Of a DNA stretch of 64,000 bases, positions 7,661 to 53,332 are shown piece after piece. The DNA comes from Minisyncoccia bacterium (GTDB taxonomy: Bacteria > Patescibacteriota > Minisyncoccia > Phycocordibacterales > UBA918), in NCBI GenBank assembly GCA_041736805.1, contig JBGSSW010000016.1, positions 2,526-66,525 of the forward strand, read 5' to 3'. The notes under the pieces were generated by a model. That model worked only from the letters and a program-made list of their open reading frames with translations, did no database searches and was not told the origin of the DNA. Position numbers and translations under genes: made by a program. The first letter of the stretch is position 1; every line of letters starts with the position of its first letter.

Positions 7661-9121
7661 ATGTTTAACAATCTATTTAAAAAACCCGCCTCAAATACAA
7701 ATCTGCCTGAAATTAGTTTTTATAACACAGAATCAAAAAAACTTGAGTTATTTAAGCCTATTTCAAACAAGACAGTCAGCATTTACTCTTGTGGTCCAAC
7801 TGTCTATGATTATGTACATATTGGTAATCTACGTTCTTACGTATTCTCCGATATATTGAAGCGAACCCTACTGATTAACGGCTATACTGTAAATCAAACT
7901 ATAAACATAACTGATTTTGGCCACTTAACTGATGATGGGGATGCCGGTGAAGATAAAATGATGAAAGGTTTAAAGCGAGAAGGTCTTCCAGTGACCTTAG
8001 ACTCAATGCGAGAACTTTCAGATACTTACATTGATGCTTTTTATGATGATATTGATTCGTTGCGCATCCTACCTCCTACTACATGGTCACGAGCCAGTGA
8101 CTACATTAATTCACAGATACGGCTAATCGAAACCCTTTCCGAAAAAGGTTACACCTATGAGACTAGCGACGGGGTCTATTTTGATATTCAAAAGTATCCG
8201 AACTATGGAAGACTAGGAAATATTGACCTAGAACAATTAAAAAGTGGAGCCAGAGTTGAAGTCAATACTGAAAAGCGCCATCCCGCTGATTTCGCAGTTT
8301 GGAAAAAAGGTCAACTTGGTTGGGAAAGCCGCTGGGGTAAAGGTTTCCCGGGTTGGCATATTGAATGTTCGGCTATGGCCATGGCGACCCTTGGTAAGGA
8401 GATAGATATTCATACTGGTGGTATTGACCACATTCCAGTTCACCACAACGCCGAAATAGCTCAATCTGAATGTGCGACGGGTAAAAAATTTGTTCGCTAC
8501 TGGATGCACAATGCTTTCATTACTATAGATAATACAAAGATCGCCAAATCACTTGGTAATTCTATTACCTTAAGACACCTCTTTGATCGTGGCTTTACTG
8601 GCGATGACTATCGTTATTGGCTGCTAACGGCCCACTACCGTTCCCCGATTAATTTCTCCTGGGATGCCCTCACAGCGGCCAAACAAGCCCTCTACCGACT
8701 CAAACGCTTTGTCTACGAAGACTACAAACAAATACCAGGACTACCTAACCAAGACTACGTTAAAAAATTCAAACAATTTTTAGCTAATGATTTAGACACT
8801 CCTTCAGCTATTGCTTTACTATGGGAAGTGACAAAAGACGATTCTCTTACCAACAAAGAGAAGTGTGCCACCATTCACTACATGGACAATGTTTTAGAAA
8901 TTGGTTTAAGTGATGATTTAGACAGTGGTAAAAAAACCCTCGGTATTGTTGGTAGTAGTGATATTCCCGCGGAAATTCAAGAATTGATAAATAATCGTGA
9001 AGCGGCCAGAATTGCCCGCAATTGGTTAGAGGCCGATAAATTTCGAGAATTATTAAACTTGAAAGGCTACTCTGTAGAAGATACACCTTACGGGCCAAAA
9101 ATAAGTAAGGGTTCTGAGTAA
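7661..9121 (+). CDS. cysS: cysteinyl-tRNA synthetase
   Basis: Contains CGPTVYDYVHIGN (HIGH region), HIECSAM and KIAKSLGN (KMSKS). 486 aa. Confidence 0.9.
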   Translation: MFNNLFKKPASNTNLPEISFYNTESKKLELFKPISNKTVSIYSCGPTVYDYVHIGNLRSYVFSDILKRTLLINGYTVNQTINITDFGHLTDDGDAGEDKMMKGLKREGLPVTLDSMRELSDTYIDAFYDDIDSLRILPPTTWSRASDYINSQIRLIETLSEKGYTYETSDGVYFDIQKYPNYGRLGNIDLEQLKSGARVEVNTEKRHPADFAVWKKGQLGWESRWGKGFPGWHIECSAMAMATLGKEIDIHTGGIDHIPVHHNAEIAQSECATGKKFVRYWMHNAFITIDNTKIAKSLGNSITLRHLFDRGFTGDDYRYWLLTAHYRSPINFSWDALTAAKQALYRLKRFVYEDYKQIPGLPNQDYVKKFKQFLANDLDTPSAIALLWEVTKDDSLTNKEKCATIHYMDNVLEIGLSDDLDSGKKTLGIVGSSDIPAEIQELINNREAARIARNWLEADKFRELLNLKGYSVEDTPYGPKISKGSE

Positions 9122-11294: not shown

Positions 11295-11627
11295 TTAGAT
11301 TGAGTCAATCTTTACTTCGGCGTAGTGTTGGCGGTGACCAAGACGTCGATCGCGGTTACTCTTGGCCTTGTAGCGAACGATAGTAAGCTTTGGACCATTC
11401 TTTTCACCTAGGTAAGTTGCCTTTACTTTAGTTCCAGTAGTTGGAGTGCCGACTTTTGCAGCTGAACCATCATCAGTCATCAGTACAGTATCAAATTCGA
11501 TTGCATCACCTTCCTTGTGCTCACCCATCAGCTCAACTAGAATAGTTTCGCCGACGGTAACGATGTATTGCTTGCCGCCGGTTGCAATAACTGCAAAAGC
11601 GTCCTTATTAGCTGTTTTTGTTGCCAT
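11295..11627 (-). CDS. rplU: 50S ribosomal protein L21
   Basis: MATKT...FAVIATGGKQYIVTVGETI... matches the L21 consensus (AVI.TGGKQY.V). The start was set at the internal Met (11627). rplU is not adjacent to rpmA in this genome. Confidence 0.85.
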   Translation of the reverse strand: MATKTANKDAFAVIATGGKQYIVTVGETILVELMGEHKEGDAIEFDTVLMTDDGSAAKVGTPTTGTKVKATYLGEKNGPKLTIVRYKAKSNRDRRLGHRQHYAEVKIDSI

Positions 11628-11637
11628 AGTGCGGGCT

Positions 11638-11666
11638 ATAGTACTAGAAAACCTTAAAAATTGCAA
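11638..11666 (-). promoter_or_regulatory. putative rplU promoter: TTGCAA, 17-nt spacer, TACTAT, with the -10 element 10 nt upstream of the ATG
   Basis: Minus-strand reading ttgcaaTTTTTAAGGTTTTCTAGtactatAGCCCGCACT-ATG. No SD is present. This implies a leaderless or near-leaderless transcript. Confidence 0.35.
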
Positions 11667-11701
11667 TGGTATGTCCAACAAGAAATTTTATTTCTAAGTA
11701 A

Positions 11702-11730
11702 TTGACAAGCTCTCTAAATCATGTTATGAT
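11702..11730 (+). promoter_or_regulatory. near-consensus sigma-70 promoter (TTGACA, 17-nt spacer, TATGAT), divergent from rplU
   Basis: TTGACAagctctctaaatcatgtTATGAT, a 6/6 -35 and a 5/6 -10 with a 17-nt spacer. It faces a GC-rich small unit on the + strand. Confidence 0.5.
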
Positions 11731-11736
11731 ATATAG

Positions 11737-11977
11737 CGTTCCGTTCCTCAACCACTCATTACCCAAGGAGAGCAAAATGCACAAAAGTGCGGTCCGTTCC
11801 ATCAAGAAGACCAGTCCCTCGGCCAGCAACCGCGCTGCCCGCGGCCGAGATGCCGAAGCGTGGCATCTCGGCCACGGCCGGCTCCAAGGGTGCTCGCCGT
11901 CGCAAGAAGGGTGGGTAGCATTTGCTACTTGCCAAACAAAAGGCCTCGTAGTCTCAAACGACTGGGGCCTTTTCTAA
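11737..11977 (+). other. GC-rich small transcription unit: either a structured sRNA or a 66-codon ORF (AGGAGA SD followed by ATG at 11777), ending in an intrinsic terminator at about 11938-11975
   Basis: Local GC is far above the surrounding genome. Hairpins include the perfect 10-bp gccgagatgc/gcatctcggc and gtagca/tgctac. The terminator stem ggcc...ggcc is followed by tttt. Codon usage (CGC, GCC, GGC) is atypical for this genome. No protein family or ncRNA class could be recognised. Confidence 0.3.
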
Positions 11978-12014
11978 TCTTCGACTTTTATCACCATTTA
12001 TAAGTAAAATTTAA

Positions 12015-13226
12015 CTAGTCTAATGCGAAATTTCTTGAAAGACGCTCAAGTGTTTCTTCTGACTGGGCTTTTGCCTTATCGTACAGAGGGATTAAGGTTT
12101 CAAGTAATATCTCTACAAATACTGGTGTCTTTGGGTCATTCTGAATACTTGCCAATGATTTAAAAAATGTTTCTCGTGTAATTTCTACAGTTCTCCTATA
12201 TTTATTATCTTTCTCTTCTGGGACATTTCCAGAGATAAGGGTATCAATATTTTTTTGCGCGTTACAAATTTGTAATTCAATAAAAGCTAACTTTTCAGCT
12301 GACGAATCAAATAATCTTTTGTCACCTAATAGAACCAAATTCTCAGCCATGCCGGCTCCCTGAGAAAATAAAACTAAATGAGCGAACAGATCTTCGCTTT
12401 TCAATTTATCTTTATTAGTATCGATAAAATTATTTAATAATGAAACCGCTTGATCTGTATCTGCTTGTTCAGAAAAATAGGGCTGGTCATCTGCTCTCAA
12501 ACCTCTAAATAAGGGAGTTTTGTCTTTCAAATAAATAGTATCTGCTAATTTTGCTAGTGACTTTGGATTTATTAAAAATTCATCATATCTCGACTTCCAA
12601 TCATCTTCTATTACGCGGGCAGAAAACATAGTGGCAAAGGCCTCTTCTAGGAGTGCCTGCTCCCCAGTATTGTGATTAATTTTATCTCTCATGAAAGTAG
12701 GGAGTGGGGAGTTCTCATTATCAAGTCCAAGCTTTATTGCCAAAATTATATGAACAAGATCATGATCCGTGACAGTTTCCATATCACCAGATAGGGTTTT
12801 TGTAGGATCGTATGTGATGCTTTTTAAATACTCTTGTTTAGTTAATGCTGAATTATTTGCAATATTTTTTGCTGTAACAACACTCATAACTCTTTTGAAT
12901 ACATAATCTAAAGTAGTCAAAACTACCTCTTCTTCTGCTGAGGAAAGTTCTCTACCAAAAGAGCTACGCGCTTTTTCGTAAATTAAATTTACCACAAGCA
13001 TTGTATTTAACTGAATTACAGCAGTTGAAAAATCATCCCGAAGGAAGTCGGTGGGCATTTGTTCAAAATCACCAACCTCTTTTTCCTTTCTACCCTGCTC
13101 ATATTCACTCACCTCAACGATATCTATTAAGTCATTTATTCTTTTCATTCTATCGACTTGAAATGAGTTAGCCTCTGCTGCATCCTCGTTGACTGAATTA
13201 ATGTTATTTTTTAAACTTTCTGACAT
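12015..13226 (-). CDS. hypothetical protein (403 aa, acidic, predicted helical), co-directional with and immediately downstream of rmuC
   Basis: Long ORF with no recognisable motif. A possible degenerate HD-like stretch DHDLVHIILAIKLGLD was noted but cannot be supported. Confidence 0.45.
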   Translation of the reverse strand: MSESLKNNINSVNEDAAEANSFQVDRMKRINDLIDIVEVSEYEQGRKEKEVGDFEQMPTDFLRDDFSTAVIQLNTMLVVNLIYEKARSSFGRELSSAEEEVVLTTLDYVFKRVMSVVTAKNIANNSALTKQEYLKSITYDPTKTLSGDMETVTDHDLVHIILAIKLGLDNENSPLPTFMRDKINHNTGEQALLEEAFATMFSARVIEDDWKSRYDEFLINPKSLAKLADTIYLKDKTPLFRGLRADDQPYFSEQADTDQAVSLLNNFIDTNKDKLKSEDLFAHLVLFSQGAGMAENLVLLGDKRLFDSSAEKLAFIELQICNAQKNIDTLISGNVPEEKDNKYRRTVEITRETFFKSLASIQNDPKTPVFVEILLETLIPLYDKAKAQSEETLERLSRNFALD

Positions 13227-13238
13227 ATTCTGTAGTTT

Positions 13239-14321
13239 TTAATCCTCCAGCTTTCCTTGCGGTTTATCAAGTGTAAGCGTGTCAATATCGATTGACTCGC
13301 CAGTAATACGCATGACATCCTTATCTATTTTTCCCAATTCTTTGTAGCCGGCATTGTAATGATTTACAGATGTCTCTAGGGTCTTACCTAGCTTGTGGTA
13401 ATAATCCTCGTATTTGCTAATATGCGTAGAAAGTCTCTCCACATTTTTGATAATATCCTGAGCTTTTTCCTCAATCTCCATCGCTTTAAGACCTTGCATA
13501 ACCGTTTGCAAATATGCCAAGAAAGAAGTTGGTGAGACGATAATTACCTTGTGAGTACCAGCCGCTCGTTGAATAAGATTTTCTTCACTGGCACCAACTT
13601 TATTTGAGAGCAGATCATAATAAATACCTTCGTGCGGAATAAACATAAAAGCAAAGTCGGTGGTTTTTTCGTTTGGTCTAATGTATTTAGCCGTTTCTGT
13701 GATGCGCAATTTAAGATCATTTACAAAAGCTTTTTCCAAAGCTATTTTTTCTGCCCCTTCTCTAGCTTCAACAAAACGATTGTAGTTTTCTAACGAAAAT
13801 TTTGAATCAATTGGAATTATTTTACCCTTCACAAAAACTGCCGCGTCAACAATATCTCCATCGCTAAAAGCATATTGCATTTTAAAACTCTCTGGAGGTA
13901 GAACGTTTTGTAGTACGGTTTCTAGATAGTATTCACCAAGAATACCTCGTTGCTTGGGATTTTTGAGAATATCTTGCAGTTCCTTCAGTTGATCAGCTAC
14001 CTGGAAAACCTGTTTACTACTCTCCCCCACCTCGCTAACGCTTTTAACTACACTACGAAGTTGTTCATTTACTTCTTTATTGATTTCCTGCATCAGCTCC
14101 TTACTTTCTCGAAATTGCAGACGGCTACCCTCTTGGGCAAGACGATTACTTTCACTCATTTGTTCCCGCATAGCTCGAGACAAATCTTGTAGCTGTTGCT
14201 GCATCAGCAGCATACTTTTATCATCTTCTTTCTTTTCTACCTCGCGAAAGAAAAATACGTAAAGTAATAAGCCAAAAATAGCCAACAGAAGCAGCACCAA
14301 AATAAAAGATATCGGTTCCAT
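13239..14321 (-). CDS. rmuC: DNA recombination protein RmuC
   Basis: An N-terminal TM segment is followed by a long coiled-coil. The GILGEYYLETVLQNVLP segment matches the RmuC signature (G.WGE..LE.vLe). Confidence 0.7.
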   Translation of the reverse strand: MEPISFILVLLLLAIFGLLLYVFFFREVEKKEDDKSMLLMQQQLQDLSRAMREQMSESNRLAQEGSRLQFRESKELMQEINKEVNEQLRSVVKSVSEVGESSKQVFQVADQLKELQDILKNPKQRGILGEYYLETVLQNVLPPESFKMQYAFSDGDIVDAAVFVKGKIIPIDSKFSLENYNRFVEAREGAEKIALEKAFVNDLKLRITETAKYIRPNEKTTDFAFMFIPHEGIYYDLLSNKVGASEENLIQRAAGTHKVIIVSPTSFLAYLQTVMQGLKAMEIEEKAQDIIKNVERLSTHISKYEDYYHKLGKTLETSVNHYNAGYKELGKIDKDVMRITGESIDIDTLTLDKPQGKLED

Positions 14322-14398
14322 GACTACAAGTGTATCACACCAAAAAATAGAAAAATGGCTGCTAAAATGCTATTATTTCTGCATTAACTATTGATATT

Positions 14399-14851
14399 AT
14401 GTCTATACACACCGAACTTCGCACCACCTTAAAAGAAGCCATGAAAGCCAAGGATGAAGTAGGATTGAGAACCGTTCGCAGTATTATTACCGCCTGTACC
14501 AATGAACTGGTCGCCACCTCAAGAACACCGCAAGCAGAACTGAAAGATGAAGAAGTCCTTGCGGTTATTAAACGCTTGGCTAAGCAACGTAAAGAGTCGA
14601 TTACTCAATATGAAGCAGCCAATCGCCCAGAGCTCGCTCTACCAGAAAAAGAGGAATTAGCAGTACTAGAGGCTTATTTGCCTTCAATGATGTCACAGGA
14701 AGCCATCAGGCCCGTTGCAGAGGCAGTTAAGGCCGAGTTGGGAATAACCGACAAATCAAAGATGGGAATATTAGTCGGTTCAGTGATGAAAAAACTCCAA
14801 GGCCAAGCAGATGGTGGTGATGTAAAAGCAGTAGTGGAAAGTCTATTCTAA
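14399..14851 (+). CDS. GatB/YqeY domain protein
   Basis: 150 aa. The pattern LKEAMKAKDEV...LRTVRS...AELGITDKSKMGILVGSVMKK is typical of the YqeY family. Confidence 0.7.
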   Translation: MSIHTELRTTLKEAMKAKDEVGLRTVRSIITACTNELVATSRTPQAELKDEEVLAVIKRLAKQRKESITQYEAANRPELALPEKEELAVLEAYLPSMMSQEAIRPVAEAVKAELGITDKSKMGILVGSVMKKLQGQADGGDVKAVVESLF

Positions 14852-14857
14852 TTTGTT

Positions 14858-15163
14858 ATGCCCAATAATGAAAAACCTAGAAGGGTTTTAGAAAAACAAA
14901 TTGCTGGAGATAGCGAGGCTTTGAGCGCTATGGGTAGGGCCGGTGGCCGTGAAGCAGCCAAAAGACGGGAACTAAGAAAAAAGATGGCCGAAATGGAAGC
15001 CGAAGCAGATGAAATTGAGCAGTATCTTCAAGCACTCAAAGAGAACAGGCACTTGGCGCCATTAACTGATGATGAAAACATTGTCTTACCAGCTACTCCT
15101 GAAGAAATCGAAGACCTAAGAGAACGTTACGAAAAATTAACCGGTCGTCATCCTAGCTACTAA
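14858..15163 (+). CDS. hypothetical small charged coiled-coil protein (101 aa)
   Basis: Its start lies 6 nt after the stop of the YqeY-like gene, suggesting translational coupling. No recognisable family. Confidence 0.4.
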   Translation: MPNNEKPRRVLEKQIAGDSEALSAMGRAGGREAAKRRELRKKMAEMEAEADEIEQYLQALKENRHLAPLTDDENIVLPATPEEIEDLRERYEKLTGRHPSY

Positions 15164-15191
15164 AATCTATTTAATTAAAATAGTTTTATAT

Positions 15192-15872
15192 TTAAAATTC
15201 CTCAAGTCGTTTGGCTTCCGTAATTGAATAAGGGCCAACTTTAGTTCGTCGCAGATTAGCCAGCGTTGCTGGATAACCAAGACGACGACCCAGTTCTTCG
15301 CCAAGAGAACGAACATATGTACCGCTACTTACTTTAAATCTAACTTTTAATAATAGGCGATTTTTTAATTCTTTATCCGCAACTTCTTTTAATTCAACTT
15401 CATAAATTATCATCCGTCGCTTTGGCACTTCTGCTACCACCTCGCCTTTAATAGCCGCTGCTCTAGCCCTTTTATACATTGGGACACCGTCCTTTTTAAT
15501 CGCGCTATAAGCTGAGACCGGCAGCTCAATTTCTCCTAGCATCGAATTAAGTGCGTCCTTAATTAAGTCTGGCGTTAAATCATTTTGATAAGATTTCTCC
15601 TCTAACACCATCCCCTCCATATCACCTGTTAAGCGCTTTTCACCTAGGATGATTTCAGTAATATATTCCTTGTCTAAACCAACTAGCTCGGTCAGGAGTT
15701 TAGTCCCAGACTCCACTCCTATCAACATTAAACCAGTGGCAAGTGGGTCGAGTGTACCCGCGTGACCGAACTTCCTTATTCCGGTACGTCTTCTTAGTTC
15801 GCGTATAACAGTGAAGGAACTAATTCCTTTTGGTTTATCAATCAAAATAAGCTTCGGTATAATTTCAGCCAT
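15192..15872 (-). CDS. truB: tRNA pseudouridine(55) synthase TruB
   Basis: LIDKPKGISSFTVIRELRR...GHAGTLDPLATGLMLIG, with the catalytic Asp in the GTLDP motif. The 226-aa form lacks a PUA domain. Confidence 0.85.
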   Translation of the reverse strand: MAEIIPKLILIDKPKGISSFTVIRELRRRTGIRKFGHAGTLDPLATGLMLIGVESGTKLLTELVGLDKEYITEIILGEKRLTGDMEGMVLEEKSYQNDLTPDLIKDALNSMLGEIELPVSAYSAIKKDGVPMYKRARAAAIKGEVVAEVPKRRMIIYEVELKEVADKELKNRLLLKVRFKVSSGTYVRSLGEELGRRLGYPATLANLRRTKVGPYSITEAKRLEEF

Positions 15873-15889
15873 AAGTTAATCTCCGTCAA

Positions 15890-17119
15890 TTAGATGACAA
15901 GTATACTTGGGTTGATTATAAGTAATCCGCCTAGTAGTAGCATTAGTAACCCGCCGACCAGTAGTGACATCTGGGCGTACTTGCCGCCATGAGACTGGAG
16001 TTTTGAATAACCCCAGATGGCTAGACCGAAAACAATAAAATCATCCACCATATACCCAGCCGTGTAGACCAAAATGAACCACTGCCTTTCCAAAAAGACC
16101 AAATTGTTTAATTCAAGAATTTTGGTATAGGCCTGAGGAATACCAATCGAGCAAGCAAATTCAATAATATTAACTGAAAAAGCGATAACTAGAATTGCTG
16201 CGATTGAAGCTAAGGTGACTGGGGCTTCGATGATTTGTTTGAACTTATTAATAGTTTTGGACTGAGTATCAAGATCGGTGATGTCACAAACGAGTTGTGC
16301 ATCTTTATTTTTATTCCAACGCCAGAGGAAGAAAGTTCCCCCACCAACCGCCAAGAAGCCGACTAGAGGCGTGACAATCTGATCCAGAGCGACAAAGTCC
16401 CAAGTCTTGTACCAGACGTTGAGAATGAGGTTGTACATTACGGCTTCTGCTATTACGAAAATACCAGCTAGCAAAACCATCTTTTTTTTACTGCCAGCCT
16501 GAGAAAGAAGTACCAAGAAAGTAATCAGTACCCACATGGCACAAGGATTAAAACCGTCAATTATGCCTAGTACTAAAGATAATGAAAATAGTGAGAAGGT
16601 TCGAAGATCAACTACGCCAAGCATTGGTAAATCAAAGATAAATTCACTTGTTCCAGCATCACACTTTATATCACTACAGCCACTACCAATTTCCACAGCT
16701 TGAACAGGAGCATCAGTAATATGTTGCTCGATGGTCATTGATGGCTTTGTGGCGGCTTCAGCTATAGCAGCTTTGATTTGTTCTCCAGTAGTTTTAGCTC
16801 CATTGAAGCCAACTAAAACTTTTTCTCCTACAACCGTAACTGGCGTGACTTTGGTAATGTCGTGTTTATCAGTAACTTCATCGTATAATTTTTTTGCCTT
16901 TTCGTCTGTAACAATATTCAGGTAGGTAAAATTAATTTTTTCATCTTCTAAATATGCAAAAAGTTTCTTACAAAAACCACACTCGTCTCTTCCAAACACA
17001 TAGACAAGGACTTCTTGTTTTTCATCGCCAGGAATATAGGCTGATGAAATACTTGGTAACACGGCATTAGAAAAAAGCACCAAACCCAACGCTATCCAAC
17101 CTAGCCAAAATTTTCCCAT
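15890..17119 (-). CDS. thioredoxin/glutaredoxin-fold domain fused to a polytopic membrane domain (DsbD/CcdA-like thiol-disulfide transporter candidate)
   Basis: A signal/TM segment precedes a CGFC thioredoxin-like motif (VFGRDECGFCKK). The membrane domain carries GFNPCAMWVL and a second pair, ACSIG. The start was set at MGKFW (17119), downstream of the YgjP-like gene's stop. Confidence 0.5.
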   Translation of the reverse strand: MGKFWLGWIALGLVLFSNAVLPSISSAYIPGDEKQEVLVYVFGRDECGFCKKLFAYLEDEKINFTYLNIVTDEKAKKLYDEVTDKHDITKVTPVTVVGEKVLVGFNGAKTTGEQIKAAIAEAATKPSMTIEQHITDAPVQAVEIGSGCSDIKCDAGTSEFIFDLPMLGVVDLRTFSLFSLSLVLGIIDGFNPCAMWVLITFLVLLSQAGSKKKMVLLAGIFVIAEAVMYNLILNVWYKTWDFVALDQIVTPLVGFLAVGGGTFFLWRWNKNKDAQLVCDITDLDTQSKTINKFKQIIEAPVTLASIAAILVIAFSVNIIEFACSIGIPQAYTKILELNNLVFLERQWFILVYTAGYMVDDFIVFGLAIWGYSKLQSHGGKYAQMSLLVGGLLMLLLGGLLIINPSILVI

Positions 17120-37218: not shown

Positions 37219-37244
37219 AAGCCCGGCGCCTTTGGCGCCGGGCT
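37214..37244 (-). terminator. greA terminator (agcccggcgcc-ttt-ggcgccgggct) followed by a U-run
   Basis: Perfect 10-11-bp GC stem. The minus-strand U-run is TTTTGCGTTT. Confidence 0.6.
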
Positions 37245-37261
37245 TTTTAAAACCAAATCAA

Positions 37262-37352
37262 AACCGCCATATACGAGGCGCGGAGGAGCGAACACAGGAG
37301 GTGTACATTGACTGTGTGAGCGACGAACGCAACAATGTAGATGGCGGTTTTG
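37262..37352. other. 91-nt GC-rich structured element closed by a 10-bp inverted repeat (aaaccgccat ... atggcggttt) in the greA 3' region
   Basis: Seen directly in the sequence. Its interior is GC-rich (gaggcgcggaggagcgaac...gagcgacgaacgc) with internal hairpins (cacag/ctgtg). Function unknown. Confidence 0.3.
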
Positions 37353-37354
37353 AC

Positions 37355-45505: not shown

Positions 45506-47140
45506 TTATGCTGGTTTGTGCTTTCTTTGTAAATCCAGAATTTGTTTAATTACTCGTCTCAAGTAATGTTCAAAGGTTTCACCTTGTTCATAGATTATTC
45601 CTTGTTCATAGCGCCAGCCATTCATATAGTCAGTAATACTTTGTTTGATTTCCTGTGTTGAGCCTTCGAATCTTCCAGCTAAAAGAAGTGGTATTTGTAG
45701 GTCTGCAAGTTTTTTAAAGAGTGGATGCTCCCTTCCTTTAGGACCGGTACCAAAAAGGCCGCTTTTCTTAAATAGTGACCAGTCAGATAAAAGTTGATTA
45801 AGTCCATCATCAACCTCACGGGTTTTTAGAGGATCGGCAGAATCACTAGTAGCTAAGGAAGAAGCTAAGGGTAAATCATTTGGAGTTTGCAGTTTTTGGC
45901 CATCATTATTAATGGATGGAGGTTTTGGAACTGGTAAAATAGCTTTTAAAGCTTCTTCTCTAGCTTCTTTTTCAGCAGCTAAAGCAAATCCAGAGACTTC
46001 TTCTTCTGCAGATTTGATCACCTCACTATCGTCTAAAATAACTGGTGACGCTATTGGTGGCGGTAGCTCATTTGAAGTGGCCACATTTTCTTGTTGGCTA
46101 GGCACATCATTAACAAGTTCAGGTTTCGACTGATTTGGAACAGGCTCTGGTCTTGACTGATTCGGAGCAGCTTGATTTTGAGATTGAGACTGCGCGTGCG
46201 TGCTAACTGCGACTTCGACTGACTTGTAAGCAGCTTCCAAACGTTGCATAGCTTCCTCAATTTGACCTGGAGCACCTCCACTAAGTCTCTTCATTGCATC
46301 CAGCAGTGCATTCATATACTCCCGTCCTACTACATTATCGATATCAACTAGATTTACAGGATTACCTACTTTTGTATTTACCGCTAGTTTTATTTCACGA
46401 ATTCGGTCTAGATAATTTTGACCTCCAGCTGACATCTGTGGCTGTGCGGGAGTAGGGTTTTGAGTTGGAGCATCTTGAGCTGGTAGTGGGGCTGGTGCTA
46501 CGTATTGAGGTTGAGGAGGTACTACAGGTTGTGGTGGTACATATTGTGGTTGCGCAGCCACTGGTTGTGGGGCTGGTGATACATATTGTGGTTGCGCTAC
46601 TGCTGGTTGAGGGGCTGGATATGCGTATACTGGAATATTTTGAGTAACAACTGGCGGTACGTACTGAGAAGCAACTGAAGCTGGTTGTGGGGTTGGTGGT
46701 ACTACAGGTTGTGGTGGTACATATTGTGGTTGAGCAGCCACTGGTTGTGGGGTTGGTGCTACGTATTGAGGTTGAGGAGGTACTACAGGTTGTGGTGGTA
46801 CATATTGTGGTTGAGCTACAGCCTGGGGTTGGATTGGTGTTTGATTCGTGACAGCTCCAAAAACCGGCGCCGGTCTAGAAGTACCGAAAGATAAATCTTG
46901 AGCAGACTGAACCACTTGAGAAGTAGATGAAAGTGTAGAAATTAAGTTATGTGCTGCTAACTTCTGCTCTAAGGCGATACGCACAGAAGCATCTCCCCCA
47001 CCATTTTTGTATAAAAAAACCAAATCTCGTAATTCATTCTTGTCAGACGGACTTAAAGAGCTAGAACGAATAGTTGCAAGCAAAGACATCACTCCCGCTT
47101 GGGAGTTAAAATTAAAACCTAAAGAACTTCCTTGATCCAT
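45506..47140 (-). CDS. Pro/Gln-rich tandem-repeat protein (544 aa) with a globular C-terminal domain
   Basis: The central part contains at least eight repeats of PQYV(P/A)PQPVVPP / PQPVAAQ. The N-terminus MDQGSSL and the upstream roughly 60 nt are shared with the 439-aa paralog gene. Confidence 0.5.
   Translation of the reverse strand: MDQGSSLGFNFNSQAGVMSLLATIRSSSLSPSDKNELRDLVFLYKNGGGDASVRIALEQKLAAHNLISTLSSTSQVVQSAQDLSFGTSRPAPVFGAVTNQTPIQPQAVAQPQYVPPQPVVPPQPQYVAPTPQPVAAQPQYVPPQPVVPPTPQPASVASQYVPPVVTQNIPVYAYPAPQPAVAQPQYVSPAPQPVAAQPQYVPPQPVVPPQPQYVAPAPLPAQDAPTQNPTPAQPQMSAGGQNYLDRIREIKLAVNTKVGNPVNLVDIDNVVGREYMNALLDAMKRLSGGAPGQIEEAMQRLEAAYKSVEVAVSTHAQSQSQNQAAPNQSRPEPVPNQSKPELVNDVPSQQENVATSNELPPPIASPVILDDSEVIKSAEEEVSGFALAAEKEAREEALKAILPVPKPPSINNDGQKLQTPNDLPLASSLATSDSADPLKTREVDDGLNQLLSDWSLFKKSGLFGTGPKGREHPLFKKLADLQIPLLLAGRFEGSTQEIKQSITDYMNGWRYEQGIIYEQGETFEHYLRRVIKQILDLQRKHKPA
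46440..46860. repeat. tandem DNA repeats (units of about 60 to 180 nt) encoding the PQYVPPQPVVPP repeats
   Basis: The 35-mer ggtactacaggttgtggtggtacatattgtggttg occurs three times on the plus strand. Shorter variants are interleaved. Confidence 0.6.
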
Positions 47141-48913: not shown

Positions 48914-51900
48914 TTAAGCCTTAATTGAACGTACATTTGCTTGCTTCAGCTTCATAAAATCCTCTGCTACTGATCTGGAGTAAATATCTTGTAGTGTGGT
49001 TTGTGGAGTATTTGGTAATTTACCTTTCATTTGGTCAATTTTATTAAACCAAGCAATAAGTGTCTCATAATTAATTCTATTTTTATCAGCAAATTCATGC
49101 AGATATTCGTTCGATTGCTCTCTAAGCAGTTTAAGATTATCCAAATTTAATTCCTTCAGAGATTCGTACGGACTTTCATATGATTTAAATCTATCAAAGA
49201 GGGCGTATGTTTTTGCTTCAAAACTAGACGCATTTCTACCTACAGCATAGTCAAAGTTTTTTGGACTACCAAATAGTTTAGTAATAAATTTTTGATACTC
49301 AGGTGACTTTAGGAAGTTGTCTCCGACTACAAAAGGTCTCGGTGCTTCAGTTGGTAAAGAGGGTTTGTAATTAAGGGTCTCGCCCAAAGCTGGTTTAAAT
49401 CCATATGAGTTTTCGTCCATAACTCTAACTGGGGTTTTGACAGTTCCATCCAAAATGCCTTCGGCTTTAGCGGCATCTAATTCTGTTTCAGTTGGGGGCT
49501 TCCACGGTGTCTCTTGAGCAATTTTGATTTGCTTTTCGAAAAGCGTCTCTGGGTTACCAGCACCTTGTCGATGTAATATTTCAGCCGTTGGTGTAGCTAT
49601 GCCCGATTGGCCAATTTTTAAATCAGGGTCAACAAACTTGCCTAACAATTTTGCTACGTCAATATTTTCACCTGGTCTTATTAAATGAGGATTGCCGCTA
49701 CTAATGCCAAGCTTCTTCCAATCTTCAGGGCTAAGAGTCCAAGTTGGATTTTGAGCATTTGTCAGTTCTGGAAACTTTTGCAACATTAATTTTGACAGCC
49801 CTTCTCGTGTCACTCCTTCTGGCTGCTTAAGATTACCTTGATCAAATTGGATCTGGAGATTCTTTTTAAAGATGCTAGAAACACTATCGCCAGACTCTAC
49901 TTTATGCTCAGGTATTTTTATCTCTACTGCTTCCTTATGAACAACATCATTAATTTTGTCGTTAACCGGACCCATCTGATTCTTCATCACATCCTCGTTT
50001 GGCATAACGTCCCCAGTTGGCTTTACTACTGAATCACCAACCCCGACCACTTCAATTGAACCAATTTTTACATTATTTATCTTAGCTGCTTGCCACCATG
50101 ATTCTGTACCAAATTTGGCCTCCAATTTGTCCATCAAAAGTCTTTCCACTTGGGCATTCGGCATATGAGGATGAGCTGACAAAATATCTTTCACTGTCAA
50201 ATCAGCTAATTTCTGTACTTCCAACATTTGTCCTGAAGATAGTTCAAGACTACCGGTTTGCAAACCTTGCAGCTCAATTCCTGAAACAACTGTTTTGGTA
50301 AAGGTACCACTCGGGTCATCGTTCAATACTGAGACTGATTCAGAAAGTGAAAAAGGAGCTTTTGCGTCAGTCACACTATCAAAGTGTGGGTCATTACCCG
50401 CTTTCATTACATCATCATTGTAGACTGGTTCAGGGTGTTCGACTGTTGCCACAGCATTCTCAGCCGCATCTTCATTTATATTGTCATTAACTGGGTCGCC
50501 AGATTTCATCACGTCGTCATTGTAGACCGGCTCAGGATTTGCCATAGTTGCCTTTGCATTCTCAGCCGCTGATCCAGCAGACGCTGGTGACATTGCTACC
50601 TTTGGAACCGCCTCACCACCCCCAGAATTACCACCATTAGCTCCTCCGCCCACACCAGACGGTGAAAGAATATCGTACGCTGCCATCGCACCACGAGAAC
50701 CCCCTGCAGCTAAGATAGTTACCCCAATAGTCATTGCAGTTTTACGTTTTTTTGCAGTATCAACTTGCGCATTTGCCAACATAACTGCTCTTCTGGCTTC
50801 AGCAACCGACATTGTATTTGAGTTTTCAGAATTTGTTAGTAAAATTTGAAGCCTTTCGCCTGCACTTTTTACTCTTTTTCCTTCATATTTATTGACGGCC
50901 GCTCCTGCCCCCATACCAAGGGCAGTTGAGACACCCCACCTTCCAGCCCCTGCCGCTCCACCAAGTGCCGCTGAAGCAGCCACGACTCCTGCTCCGGCTG
51001 CCCCTACTGCCAAAACTCCCAGGGTTGCACCTGTCATAGAAGCTACCGCTAGACCAATCGCTAATCGTACTTTTTTATTTTTCGGCAGAAGTTTTGCAAT
51101 CCTTCCTACCGTCGCTATAGTCTTGGGCCAATCATTAATAAAGGCATCCCTTTTTTCAGCTTTAGAAGCAAGGATAGTTTTTTGTTCAGCAGCATCAATA
51201 CCTACAATTAGTTTGTTCTGTAAACCTGTCTTAATCTGGTCACTATCAGCTGTCAATACAGTATCTAAGACACGATCTTTTCTTCTATCTTCTATCTGAA
51301 TAAGTAATTTCTCACGGTATTGTTCGGCCGCTTCATCAGCCTCCTTTCTTAATTTACGTAAATGTTCTGCCGGACTCGATTCTCCGTTGAATGAATTCTT
51401 AATCCCCCCCGTTATCTTTTCTTTTATACTTTGTTTATGATAGCTAGACAAAGCCTGACGATATGCCTCGTCACACTTATCCATACTGAGACGAGCTAAC
51501 ATTGTCTCATTAGCCAAACTTTTTCTTTCAGCTTTTCTTTCATCTATAAAACCTACTCTTTCGTGAGTCGGTGAATCAGGATTGATTCCTACTGCTCGCA
51601 ACCTCTCTGCCCTAGCAGCATCCTCAGGACTAACTATCGAACCAGGTGCTGCTGCTACAGGAGGCAAATCATCTGGTGTAGGTTCTGGAGCTGGTGCGGT
51701 ATCGGGACTCTGTGTATCGCTTACAACATCAGGGGCAACCGGAGCAGCTTCACCATCAGTTGCTGGAGGAGGCACGTCTAAATCAGGACTCATCATATCA
51801 GCAGAAGTCTTTTCTTCTAGAATTTCTTCAACCGCTGGTTTACCATAATAATTACCTGAATTATTATTTAAAATATCAGATTCTAATACTTCAACCCCAG

Positions 51901-53332
51901 CGGTCGATTCAGCCTCAATTTCTGGGACTGTTTCTGGAACATAATTTTCCAAACTTTCCTCATCATATAATTCTTCCACTTCCCGGCTGATACTCTTCTC
52001 TTTCAACTTTAAACTTAGCTTTCCTAGACTTATTTTAAGAGCTTTTAGATAGCGCGATTTAATTTTTAAAGCAATGTTCTTATCGGACTCTTTGACACTT
52101 TCAATTTTGTTCACCAAATCTACTATTTCGTTAACTAACGATTCATTCACTTCTTTTATACGCGATGAATCAAAAAGTGTCTGGGTTTCTTTGGCTAACC
52201 TTTCCATTTGAGCGTCCATTTCTTCTAAATCTTTTGGTTCGTTTTCACTATCAAAAGAACCCTCTGTTTTAGGACCTCTTACTTGTCTTTCCTGCTCTTC
52301 TTTTTCCAGTAGTTTTACTAACTCACCAGGATTTTCTAAATAAAACGCTACTCCGTTTTTTATTTCATTATAATTACTATCTATTGCTCGACTAATTTCA
52401 ATTTTTTCTTCTACACTCTTTCCGGTTCCGACTTTTTTCCTGACTAAATCACCAGTGTTTCTTCTAATTCTTTCTAAAATTTTACTTACTGATTGCGGCA
52501 ACCTATCTATTCCAGCCACTTCTAAAAGACCGTGCTGGGCTTTTTCCATAATAAACCGTATCGGAATATTTTTTCCATTTCCATCTTTCAATTCTTTGCC
52601 ATTTCTATATCTCTCGGCCAACTTTGGATTACCACTCAAAACTTCTCTGGTCCCAAAAACTTCTTCGGCCGTTGGGAAATCACCAGCTTCAAGTTTATTA
52701 AAATTTGTTTCCTCATTTGATTCAAAAACTAATGAGTTTGAAACCTCTTCCCCTGGTACCAAAGCCTCACTTTCAATTGAATCAGTATCCACACTAAAGG
52801 GACCAGAATAATACTCCTCTGAATTATCAAATGATTTAGTTTCTTCCTTTGTGGCTTCCGGGTCAAAATCTTCCACACCCATCTTGGTTAAGTATTTATT
52901 CCAAGCCATTTCATGCTCATCCCGAGGCCCGACAGAAAACTCATGGGGGTTTTTGTTTGTTATTTTTTCATTAAAATTAGCGATACCCTGACGAAACTTA
53001 AAAAAAGCCTGCTCTACTTGATACCTTTTTTTATGATCATCTGTGGTTGTAGTTTCATTTATTAGCTCAATCAATTCTTTGTAGGCAATACTAACCGTAC
53101 TTACTAACTCACTTAAATTACCCACCTCAACCGAATTAATTGCTTGATTTTTAAAATCCTCGTATTCTTCGACAGCGTCTGTAAGTCGTTCAGAAAAAAA
53201 AGTGTCTTCTGAATCGTCTTCTTCATAATTATCTTCTAAGCCCTGTTGCCCAGCCTTTACCAGAGCAGCCCGAGTTAGTCTTTCGACTCTTTCTCTTTCA
53301 AAATTATGAATCTCACTCTCAGATTTTCCCAT
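48914..53332 (-). CDS. giant bitopic protein (1472 aa): N-terminal acidic/coiled-coil region, Gly/Ala-rich TM hairpin, then repeats, LysM-like motifs and a conserved C-terminal module
   Basis: Its start lies 8 nt after the stop of the VirB4-like gene. Residues 1-740 are charged and helical. A Pro-rich linker (PAPEPTPDDLPP) follows. Hydrophobic glycine-zipper segments AIGLAVASMTGATLGVLAVGAAGAGVVAASAALGGAAGAG and MTIGVTILAAGG follow. A Gly/Asn-rich stretch and two repeats of about 36 aa (PEPVYNDDVMK) come next. The C-terminal roughly 430 aa are paralogous to the 439-aa protein. Confidence 0.6.
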   Translation of the reverse strand: MGKSESEIHNFERERVERLTRAALVKAGQQGLEDNYEEDDSEDTFFSERLTDAVEEYEDFKNQAINSVEVGNLSELVSTVSIAYKELIELINETTTTDDHKKRYQVEQAFFKFRQGIANFNEKITNKNPHEFSVGPRDEHEMAWNKYLTKMGVEDFDPEATKEETKSFDNSEEYYSGPFSVDTDSIESEALVPGEEVSNSLVFESNEETNFNKLEAGDFPTAEEVFGTREVLSGNPKLAERYRNGKELKDGNGKNIPIRFIMEKAQHGLLEVAGIDRLPQSVSKILERIRRNTGDLVRKKVGTGKSVEEKIEISRAIDSNYNEIKNGVAFYLENPGELVKLLEKEEQERQVRGPKTEGSFDSENEPKDLEEMDAQMERLAKETQTLFDSSRIKEVNESLVNEIVDLVNKIESVKESDKNIALKIKSRYLKALKISLGKLSLKLKEKSISREVEELYDEESLENYVPETVPEIEAESTAGVEVLESDILNNNSGNYYGKPAVEEILEEKTSADMMSPDLDVPPPATDGEAAPVAPDVVSDTQSPDTAPAPEPTPDDLPPVAAAPGSIVSPEDAARAERLRAVGINPDSPTHERVGFIDERKAERKSLANETMLARLSMDKCDEAYRQALSSYHKQSIKEKITGGIKNSFNGESSPAEHLRKLRKEADEAAEQYREKLLIQIEDRRKDRVLDTVLTADSDQIKTGLQNKLIVGIDAAEQKTILASKAEKRDAFINDWPKTIATVGRIAKLLPKNKKVRLAIGLAVASMTGATLGVLAVGAAGAGVVAASAALGGAAGAGRWGVSTALGMGAGAAVNKYEGKRVKSAGERLQILLTNSENSNTMSVAEARRAVMLANAQVDTAKKRKTAMTIGVTILAAGGSRGAMAAYDILSPSGVGGGANGGNSGGGEAVPKVAMSPASAGSAAENAKATMANPEPVYNDDVMKSGDPVNDNINEDAAENAVATVEHPEPVYNDDVMKAGNDPHFDSVTDAKAPFSLSESVSVLNDDPSGTFTKTVVSGIELQGLQTGSLELSSGQMLEVQKLADLTVKDILSAHPHMPNAQVERLLMDKLEAKFGTESWWQAAKINNVKIGSIEVVGVGDSVVKPTGDVMPNEDVMKNQMGPVNDKINDVVHKEAVEIKIPEHKVESGDSVSSIFKKNLQIQFDQGNLKQPEGVTREGLSKLMLQKFPELTNAQNPTWTLSPEDWKKLGISSGNPHLIRPGENIDVAKLLGKFVDPDLKIGQSGIATPTAEILHRQGAGNPETLFEKQIKIAQETPWKPPTETELDAAKAEGILDGTVKTPVRVMDENSYGFKPALGETLNYKPSLPTEAPRPFVVGDNFLKSPEYQKFITKLFGSPKNFDYAVGRNASSFEAKTYALFDRFKSYESPYESLKELNLDNLKLLREQSNEYLHEFADKNRINYETLIAWFNKIDQMKGKLPNTPQTTLQDIYSRSVAEDFMKLKQANVRSIKA

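Follow-up and report, generated by a model that had tools for sequence, protein, structure and literature searches.

A GC-rich, hairpin-forming candidate sRNA unit divergent from rplU in a Minisyncoccia bacterium

The DNA considered here, referred to as the window, is a stretch of 64,000 nucleotides (nt) from a Minisyncoccia bacterium of the Patescibacteriota (GenBank assembly GCA_041736805.1, contig JBGSSW010000016.1, positions 2,526 to 66,525), and one of its intergenic regions holds a short unit, rich in guanine and cytosine (GC), that lies back to back with rplU, the gene for ribosomal protein L21. The reading we favour, though tentatively and with something short of even confidence, is that this is a strain-specific, stand-alone transcription unit giving a structured transcript of about 237 nt of the small RNA (sRNA) type. 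It is favoured because the unit joins a native-style promoter and a terminator to extreme predicted stability, a GC content biased toward paired positions and no coding signal. A preliminary description of the same DNA had left the choice between a structured noncoding RNA and a very small protein gene of foreign origin; the first of these is the one preferred here, while the second, as a gene for 66 amino acids (aa), finds no support. The discrete unit that it had outlined, divergent from rplU and running from promoter to terminator, is borne out at the level of sequence, where the region has what is expected of an sRNA gene, namely an intergenic location, a promoter of its own and a Rho-independent terminator. 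The combination of promoter, Shine-Dalgarno (SD) sequence with ATG, and fold is well beyond chance.

The putative promoter, of the sigma-70 type (11702-11730, + strand), consists of TTGACA (11702-11707), a 17-nt spacer and TATGAT (11725-11730), and it matches the consensus at 11 of 12 positions. A preceding TG makes it an extended -10 promoter, and this box, TGTTATGAT, recurs in identical form directly upstream of the native genes starting at 47140(-) and 48562(-); judged by its sequence, the promoter is native in style. A site of such quality would be found by chance within 100 nt upstream and on the correct strand with a probability of only about 0.002. Transcription would start at about 11736-11738. 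Further along the same strand lies the SD sequence AAGGAGA (11765-11771), separated by a 6-nt spacer from an ATG at 11777; the pattern AGGAG-N5-9-ATG occurs 9 times in 128 kb, with about 0.004 occurrences expected per 60 nt. The preliminary description had placed a near-consensus TTGACA-17-TATGAT promoter, an SD and an ATG at these positions, and was right on all three.

The segment that would form the 5' part of the RNA (11736-11800) is largely unpaired in the predicted fold. Besides the SD and the ATG it includes a 4-bp hairpin, GCAC-AAAA-GUGC (11779-11790), and a 12-nt direct repeat, GCGTTCCGTTCC (11736-11747) and GCGGTCCGTTCC (11789-11800), which gives the motif GCGKUCCGUUCC in RNA. On the other side, between the back-to-back promoters of rplU and the unit, the sequence contains an AT-rich perfect palindrome, AGAAAT-TTT-ATTTCT (11681-11695), that could be an operator or an UP-like element.

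The GC-rich part of the unit begins at about 11790. The highest 100-nt GC peak of the window, 0.74 (z 5.6), falls at 11816-11915, in DNA from a low-GC (0.39) member of the Patescibacteria, of the Paceibacteria type. It had been reported as a stretch of about 200 nt far more GC-rich than anything else in the window. A GC-rich stretch is indeed present and does include the highest peak, but it is shorter, about 125-140 nt (11790-11915), and the contrast was overstated, a runner-up reaching 0.68 at 50896-50995. That second peak sits in an Ala/Gly-rich stretch within an open reading frame (ORF) of 1472 aa, which leaves the unit as the only GC peak without a supported coding frame. The intergenic region that contains the unit is 387 nt long; the median for such regions in the window is 86 nt and their mean GC content 0.33.

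Most of the GC-rich stretch is an imperfect palindrome (11817-11902, + strand) that would form a long hairpin of about 31 bp (about 86 nt), with a folding energy of -53 kcal/mol and arms that are about 74% complementary across 84 nt. At its tip is a perfect 13-bp stem, 11843-11855 paired with 11861-11873 around the loop AAGCG, and the hairpin with perfect 10-nt arms noticed earlier, GGCCGAGATGCC/GGCATCTCGGCC, lies within these positions (11843-11873). A second hairpin, GGUGGGUAGC-AUUU-GCUACUUGCC (11910-11933, + strand), includes the pair GTAGCA/TGCTAC and has 10 bp counting G-U pairs; because of its dependence on G-U pairs it is stronger on the + strand than on the minus strand, where 8 bp can form. 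It is followed by a bidirectional intrinsic terminator, AAAAGGCC...GGCCTTTT (11938-11973), with energies of -17.9 kcal/mol on the + strand and -15.6 kcal/mol on the minus strand, which also serves a convergent gene of 403 aa. Both hairpins and the terminator are present as first described. Taken as a whole, the predicted fold of a 239-nt RNA has a z score of -4.7, and none of 200 shuffled sequences was as stable.

The distribution of GC within this fold bears on where the sequence came from. Paired positions have a GC content of 0.77 and unpaired ones of 0.48, as a constraint on hairpin formation would give, so the foreign, GC-rich donor that had been suggested is not required. In AT-rich genomes, a long intergenic region of high GC content is an established mark of a structured RNA (PMC6429828), and the unit resembles in this respect the candidates collected by screens of GC-rich intergenic regions, or GC-IGRs (PMC6429828, PMC11109978). 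Those screens rest on many representatives and on covariation, whereas the unit is a single copy, and in the GC-IGR scheme a candidate with a single representative is placed in an 'unnamed' or low-ranking class (PMC6429828).

From the sequence we infer transcription of the unit, the ends of its RNA and an action at the RNA level, along the following lines. RNA polymerase would initiate at the extended -10 promoter, at about 11737, and the first 60 nt or so of the RNA would be mostly single-stranded and would carry the duplicated motif and the SD-AUG. The long GC-rich hairpin would fold next and the 10-bp hairpin after it, and the transcript would end at about 11973, at the terminator that the convergent 403-aa gene uses as well. 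Targets could be bound by pairing through the single-stranded 5' part, and possible roles of the long hairpin are to make the RNA more stable or to offer a site to RNase III or to a binding protein.

Such a layout is familiar from stand-alone sRNA genes and from dual-function sRNAs that carry a small SD-led ORF, such as SgrS/SgrT, RNAIII/hld and SR1/SR1P. The shared features are a sigma-70-type promoter, a length of about 240 nt, a single-stranded 5' part followed by hairpins, a Rho-independent terminator, an intergenic location and an SD-ATG; the unit differs in having no homology of sequence or structure to any of them and in being known from the sequence of one genome alone.

Several observations weigh against an RNA function. 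The core of the unit is a simple, near-perfect palindrome, not a complex fold, and the predicted structure is equally stable on the minus strand (-76 versus -73 kcal/mol). Sites with at least 11 of 12 promoter matches number 2 in the whole window, against 2.7 expected. A canonical SD-ATG stands at the 5' end, and in several relatives genuine-looking, SD-led small protein genes occupy the unit's position. No Rfam family matches, and a covariance model built from the single sequence matched only itself and nothing in 38 related loci. The unit is known from one copy, in 1 of 34 genomes compared, and is thus without support from covariation or conservation. Finally, its complementarity to the rest of the window is at the level of chance (28 10-mers, with 20 +/- 7 expected).

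Another candidate reading puts the function on the minus strand, where the three hairpins could act as a tandem array of terminators, or an insulator, shielding the near-leaderless rplU promoter from read-through out of rmuC and the 403-aa gene; the promoter and SD on the + strand would then be incidental. The long hairpin is as stable in this direction, the better T-tract of the bidirectional terminator, TTTTGTTTGG, is the one on the minus strand, and a further terminator-like site lies at 11824-11809 (-). A terminator immediately ahead of the rplU promoter is, moreover, common in relatives. That said, one terminator suffices in those relatives, the second hairpin is weaker on the minus strand, and two coincidences on the + strand have to be accepted, a promoter with 11 of 12 matches and a TG, and an SD-ATG, whose joint chance is about 1e-5. 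We regard a minus-strand function as quite improbable.

The ATG at 11777 opens a frame of 66 codons (frame 1, 11777-11977, + strand), which had been described as a possible mini-gene of foreign origin and which is probably not a genuine coding sequence. An open frame is uninformative here, since the GC core is free of stop codons in every one of the six frames. The three codon positions hardly differ in GC content (0.67, 0.71 and 0.65), there is no three-base periodicity, and the codon log-odds score of frame 1 is -0.10, against 0.28 +/- 0.13 for native genes. The stop codon, TAA (11975-11977), falls in the T-tract of the terminator, so that terminated transcripts would mostly lack a stop codon. 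An alternative +1 frame (frame 2, 43 codons, 11787-11918, + strand) ends in ...MPKRGISATAGSKGARRRKKGG*, ahead of both final hairpins; its codon score is the highest of the three (+0.06 to +0.12, with -0.32 for frame 3), but it is without a usable start signal. What is expected of a small ORF is thus found in part: a ribosome-binding site, AAGGAGA, stands 6 nt before the start codon at 11777, but coding periodicity or codon usage, a conserved peptide and a stop upstream of the terminator are all missing.

Searches for homologous proteins point the same way. None of the six frames of the unit matched anything in 5.8 billion protein clusters at E <= 10. When frame 1 was compared with 1.84 billion representatives in a full HMMER pass, the sole match was P0006, in which five matches of about 28 bits each to a tandem repeat were summed; it was rejected as a chance match with a score inflated by the repeats. 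Pfam, NCBIfam, PADLOC, PHROGs and the PDB gave no match for the frames of the unit, two hand-made frameshift fusions among them. Annotation pipelines call no ORF at the unit, and exact-protein look-ups for its small ORFs returned nothing on record.

A weak resemblance to the N-termini of ribosomal proteins S20 and L35 had also been noted, and it is not statistically detectable by tests with hidden Markov models. The likeness lies in a length of about 65 aa and in the N-terminus of the unit's ORF, HKSAVRSIKKT, which is faintly similar to its ribosomal counterpart HKGAAKRFKKT; the middle of the ORF differs in not being basic. For bL35, there was no match to Pfam Ribosomal_L35p or to NCBIfam with frame 1, frame 2 or the two fusions, and phmmer against the PDB at E <= 10 gave no ribosomal protein, in a set that holds many L35 and S20 chains. 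The infC-rpmI-rplT arrangement is also absent, the neighbours being the divergent rplU and the orphan 403-aa gene. For bS20, no profile or PDB chain was matched.

It is nevertheless conceivable that the unit encodes a small protein, or is what a recently decayed gene of that sort has left behind, with translation from the ATG at 11777 either giving the 66-aa peptide of frame 1 or proceeding by way of a +1 shift. A shift at, for example, CCC-U (11816-11819) could give a very basic peptide of about 46 aa ending in ...GSKGARRRKKGG, with a stop at 11916-11918. The rarity of AAGGAGA-N6-ATG (9 in 128 kb) speaks for translation, as do the SD-led small genes found at a matching place and in matching orientation in several relatives (among them one encoding a basic peptide of 38 aa, in locus L013), and frame 2, with its superior codon score, stops before the last two hairpins as normal genes do. 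Set against this are the failure of every frame and frameshift fusion to find a homologue or family, the missing periodicity in DNA whose GC content opens six frames by chance, and the awkward mechanics of frames that stop in a T-tract (frame 1), have no start signal (frame 2) or need a putative frameshift. On balance a protein gene seems to us unlikely.

Comparison with related genomes places the unit on inserted DNA. The gap between rmuC and rplU measures only 65-110 nt in the closest relatives (loci L001 and L006), from which it follows that the DNA between about 11690 and 13238 is an insertion of about 1.55 kb relative to them, and that the insertion carries both the GC-rich unit and the 403-aa gene. 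In that the unit lies on DNA absent from the nearest relatives, an origin specific to the lineage or by acquisition is upheld. An assembly chimera, which would have been betrayed by reads failing to span the GC transitions near 11790 and 11930, has been ruled out, because an independent assembly, a Logan contig from SRR28170465, is 100% identical to the window from 11637 to 16226 and spans both transitions. The Logan contig ends at 11637, within the rplU promoter block, perhaps because several related species have some of that block in identical form.

Relatives of the unit itself were sought widely. Comparison by blastn and tblastx with 33 rplU loci and with 5 loci of homologues of the 403-aa gene, of the kind that the preliminary description had called for, found no match within the insert. 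Plasmid and phage collections gave chance matches or none, peptide patterns had no match in Joint Genome Institute (JGI) metagenomes and viral contigs, and three viral DNA patterns likewise had none. The pattern of the hairpin stem occurs at 7 sites in metagenomes that are alike in the stem only.

These results bear on the possibility that the unit is a relic without function: a palindromic, GC-rich element of the miniature inverted-repeat transposable element (MITE) or repetitive extragenic palindrome (REP) type, or one formed locally, in or beside a former cargo gene, with promoter, SD and terminator left over and any transcript devoid of a role. Its presence in 1 of 34 genomes, within a gap of fast turnover, speaks for such an origin, and so does a core made of an 84-nt palindrome. 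The palindrome lies between two copies of a 7-nt direct repeat, CAAGAAG, exactly 100 nt apart, a distance that corresponds to the +1 shift from one to the other of the two best coding frames. Repeats of 7 nt, however, are no commoner than chance within 301 nt, and neither CAAGAAG nor TTTCTAA stands out from chance as a target-site duplication. The unit is single-copy in the 64 kb of the window and absent from 38 other loci, nothing related was found in plasmid, phage, viral or metagenome collections beyond chance matches to the stem, and promoter, SD and terminator are all intact. REP elements and the mosaics built of them (BIME), MITEs, Rickettsia palindromic elements, Correia elements and RUP elements are multi-copy by definition. 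The unit is like them in being an imperfect palindrome of 80-100 nt with a long hairpin, in or near genes and possibly flanked by a short direct repeat; it departs from them in being single-copy in all the sequence searched, with flanking repeats that are within chance. An inert relic is to our minds a real though minor possibility.

Known RNA families do not account for the unit. At the gathering threshold, Rfam 15 reported two tRNAs in the whole window and nothing at the unit; at E <= 10, the best matches to 11600-12050 were snoR71, mir-3943, His_leader and STnc320, each well short of its threshold and without biological relevance. The families so covered include riboswitches, ribozymes and the domains of group II introns. 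The snoR71 match (E 0.01) is noise that happens to overlap the palindrome at 11681-11695 and is meaningless. ARAGORN found no tRNA or transfer-messenger RNA (tmRNA) at the unit, and Rfam had no match in 20 related loci. The earlier dismissal of tmRNA, signal recognition particle (SRP) RNA and RNase P RNA, made for want of their motifs, agrees with this covariance-model search, in which none of these families matched. For 6S RNA and SRP RNA the shape is also wrong, since three successive hairpins without a 5'-3' closing stem offer neither a closing stem with a central bubble nor a domain IV motif.

Other candidates were rejected on context. A structured L21 (rplU) leader does not fit, as the last nucleotide of the conserved rplU -10 box lies 10 nt upstream of the ATG here and in seven relatives, and the corresponding family, RF00559, gave no match. 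A retron msr-msd would call for an adjacent reverse transcriptase (RT) gene on the same strand, and the sole neighbour is convergent, all-helical and without a Pfam RT domain. The adjacent gene has no TnpB domain, which disposes of a TnpB/omega-RNA pair, and no R''/R' core sites of an integron attC site appear on reading the sequence.

The order with rmuC upstream and rplU next to it recurs in 31 of the 33 related loci, with a gap that ranges from 65 nt to about 1.9 kb. Among related Patescibacteria (L002-L033; the gap lies, for example, at 2157-2500 in L008, 1855-2500 in L013, 1514-2500 in L018 and 1938-2500 in L025) its content is variable, and in several it consists of unrelated small genes without a Pfam match. 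These include a family of about 69 aa (L008, L014 and L017), a family of about 118-167 aa (L024 to L027 and L029), basic peptides of 38-56 aa, among them the SD-led one of 38 aa in L013 already mentioned, and hydrophobic proteins of small size. An SD, the orientation of the unit, divergent from rplU, and a closing bidirectional terminator are found in several of these cargo genes, and a promoter-like site belonging to the gene itself in some. They are therefore like the unit in position, orientation and terminator-closed layout. They are unlike it in that their ORFs stop before the terminator and that they are not GC-rich palindromes; no resemblance to the unit was found by blastn, blastp-short or the covariance model.

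One of the related loci, L018, has another GC-rich unit at about 1514-2500, with up to 73% GC and a promoter-like TTGACA-17-TAAACT. A GC-rich leader of about 110 nt, closed by GTCTGGCGGCT/AGCCGCCAGAC, precedes an SD-led ORF of 42 aa that is rich in Gly and Ala. Rfam has no match to it at the gathering threshold.

We know of no characterised sRNA from bacteria of the Candidate Phyla Radiation (CPR), and to our knowledge the small-RNA biology of Patescibacteria is largely unexplored. Should the unit be expressed, this group would have in it a rare candidate for a regulatory RNA or a tiny protein, and the rmuC-rplU gap would also offer a convenient natural site for studying the gain and loss of small genes in reduced genomes; an inert unit would be a strain-specific palindromic insertion of no wider consequence. 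The soberest description is of a candidate orphan sRNA or small ORF of a known kind, without a family, which would be unsurprising in an intergenic region of fast turnover. A bolder one, which we think has little chance of being right, would make it a regulatory RNA that functions in this CPR lineage alone, or the very basic +1-shift peptide of about 46 aa, recently acquired back to back with rplU in that fast-turnover gap, which might then be a testing ground for new small genes across Patescibacteria. Arguably, more interest attaches to this variable gap, and to the gene starts described below, which are poor in SDs and seem to lack leaders, than to the unit.

Near the unit, cysS, dnaB and recR lie on the + strand, and rmuC (13239-14321, minus strand) has yqeY and truB beyond it. 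The L21 protein is 94% identical to its counterpart in the metagenome-assembled genome JBGSVK010000048. The orphan 403-aa gene (12015-13226, minus strand), convergent with the unit and part of the same insertion, starts 12 nt past the rmuC stop codon. Its protein has only three distant homologues (40-45% identity) among the 5.8 billion clusters searched, and no match in Pfam, PADLOC or PHROGs; the structural model is all-helical, with a mean predicted local distance difference test (pLDDT) of 74, and matches no fold in the PDB. The homologues lie in other genomic contexts with no adjoining GC-rich unit, which argues that the gene and the unit are not a conserved pair, and a functional association between them was set aside on this ground.

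rplU itself (11295-11627, minus strand) has its ATG at 11627 and a putative promoter at 11637-11665 (minus strand), consisting of TTGCAA (11665-11660), a 17-nt spacer and TACTAT (11642-11637), followed by AGCCCGCACT and the ATG. This block (11628-11668) is nearly identical in seven related loci (L001, L002, L005, L006, L007, L009 and L011), among which the L21 proteins differ by 6-19%, and it marks the point at which conservation with the relatives resumes. With the -10 box ending 10 nt before the ATG and no SD in between, rplU appears to have no leader, or hardly any. In the NCBI annotation rplU starts instead at a TTG (11681), giving a protein of 128 aa that extends into the non-conserved DNA.

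The arrangement is not peculiar to rplU. An extended -10 box (TGnTAnnnT) stands 7-12 nt before the ATG in many core genes, examples being the starts at 7661(+), 9207(+), 14321(-), 41814(-), 47140(-), 48562(-), 53332(-), 56106(-) and 58871(+), and an SD-like core precedes 2 of 47 long ORFs in a crude count that took the first ATG as the start. The pattern suggests that leaderless or very short-leader mRNAs are widespread in the lineage; a literature search found no description of it for Patescibacteria.

Two further features of the window deserve mention. An intergenic region at 37219-37354, with a GC content of 0.54, contains a strong terminator, AAAAGCCCGGCGCC...GGCGCCGGGCTTTTT, directly followed by an imperfect hairpin of about 95 nt, AAAACCGCCAT...ATGGCGGTTTT, the two having a joint folding energy of -70 kcal/mol; it has no match in Rfam, and its sequence is unrelated to that of the GC-rich unit. 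The 1472-aa ORF that holds the second GC peak (48914-53332, minus strand) has acidic repeats, with PEPVYNDDVMK occurring twice, and its Ala/Gly-rich stretch is probably membrane-spanning.

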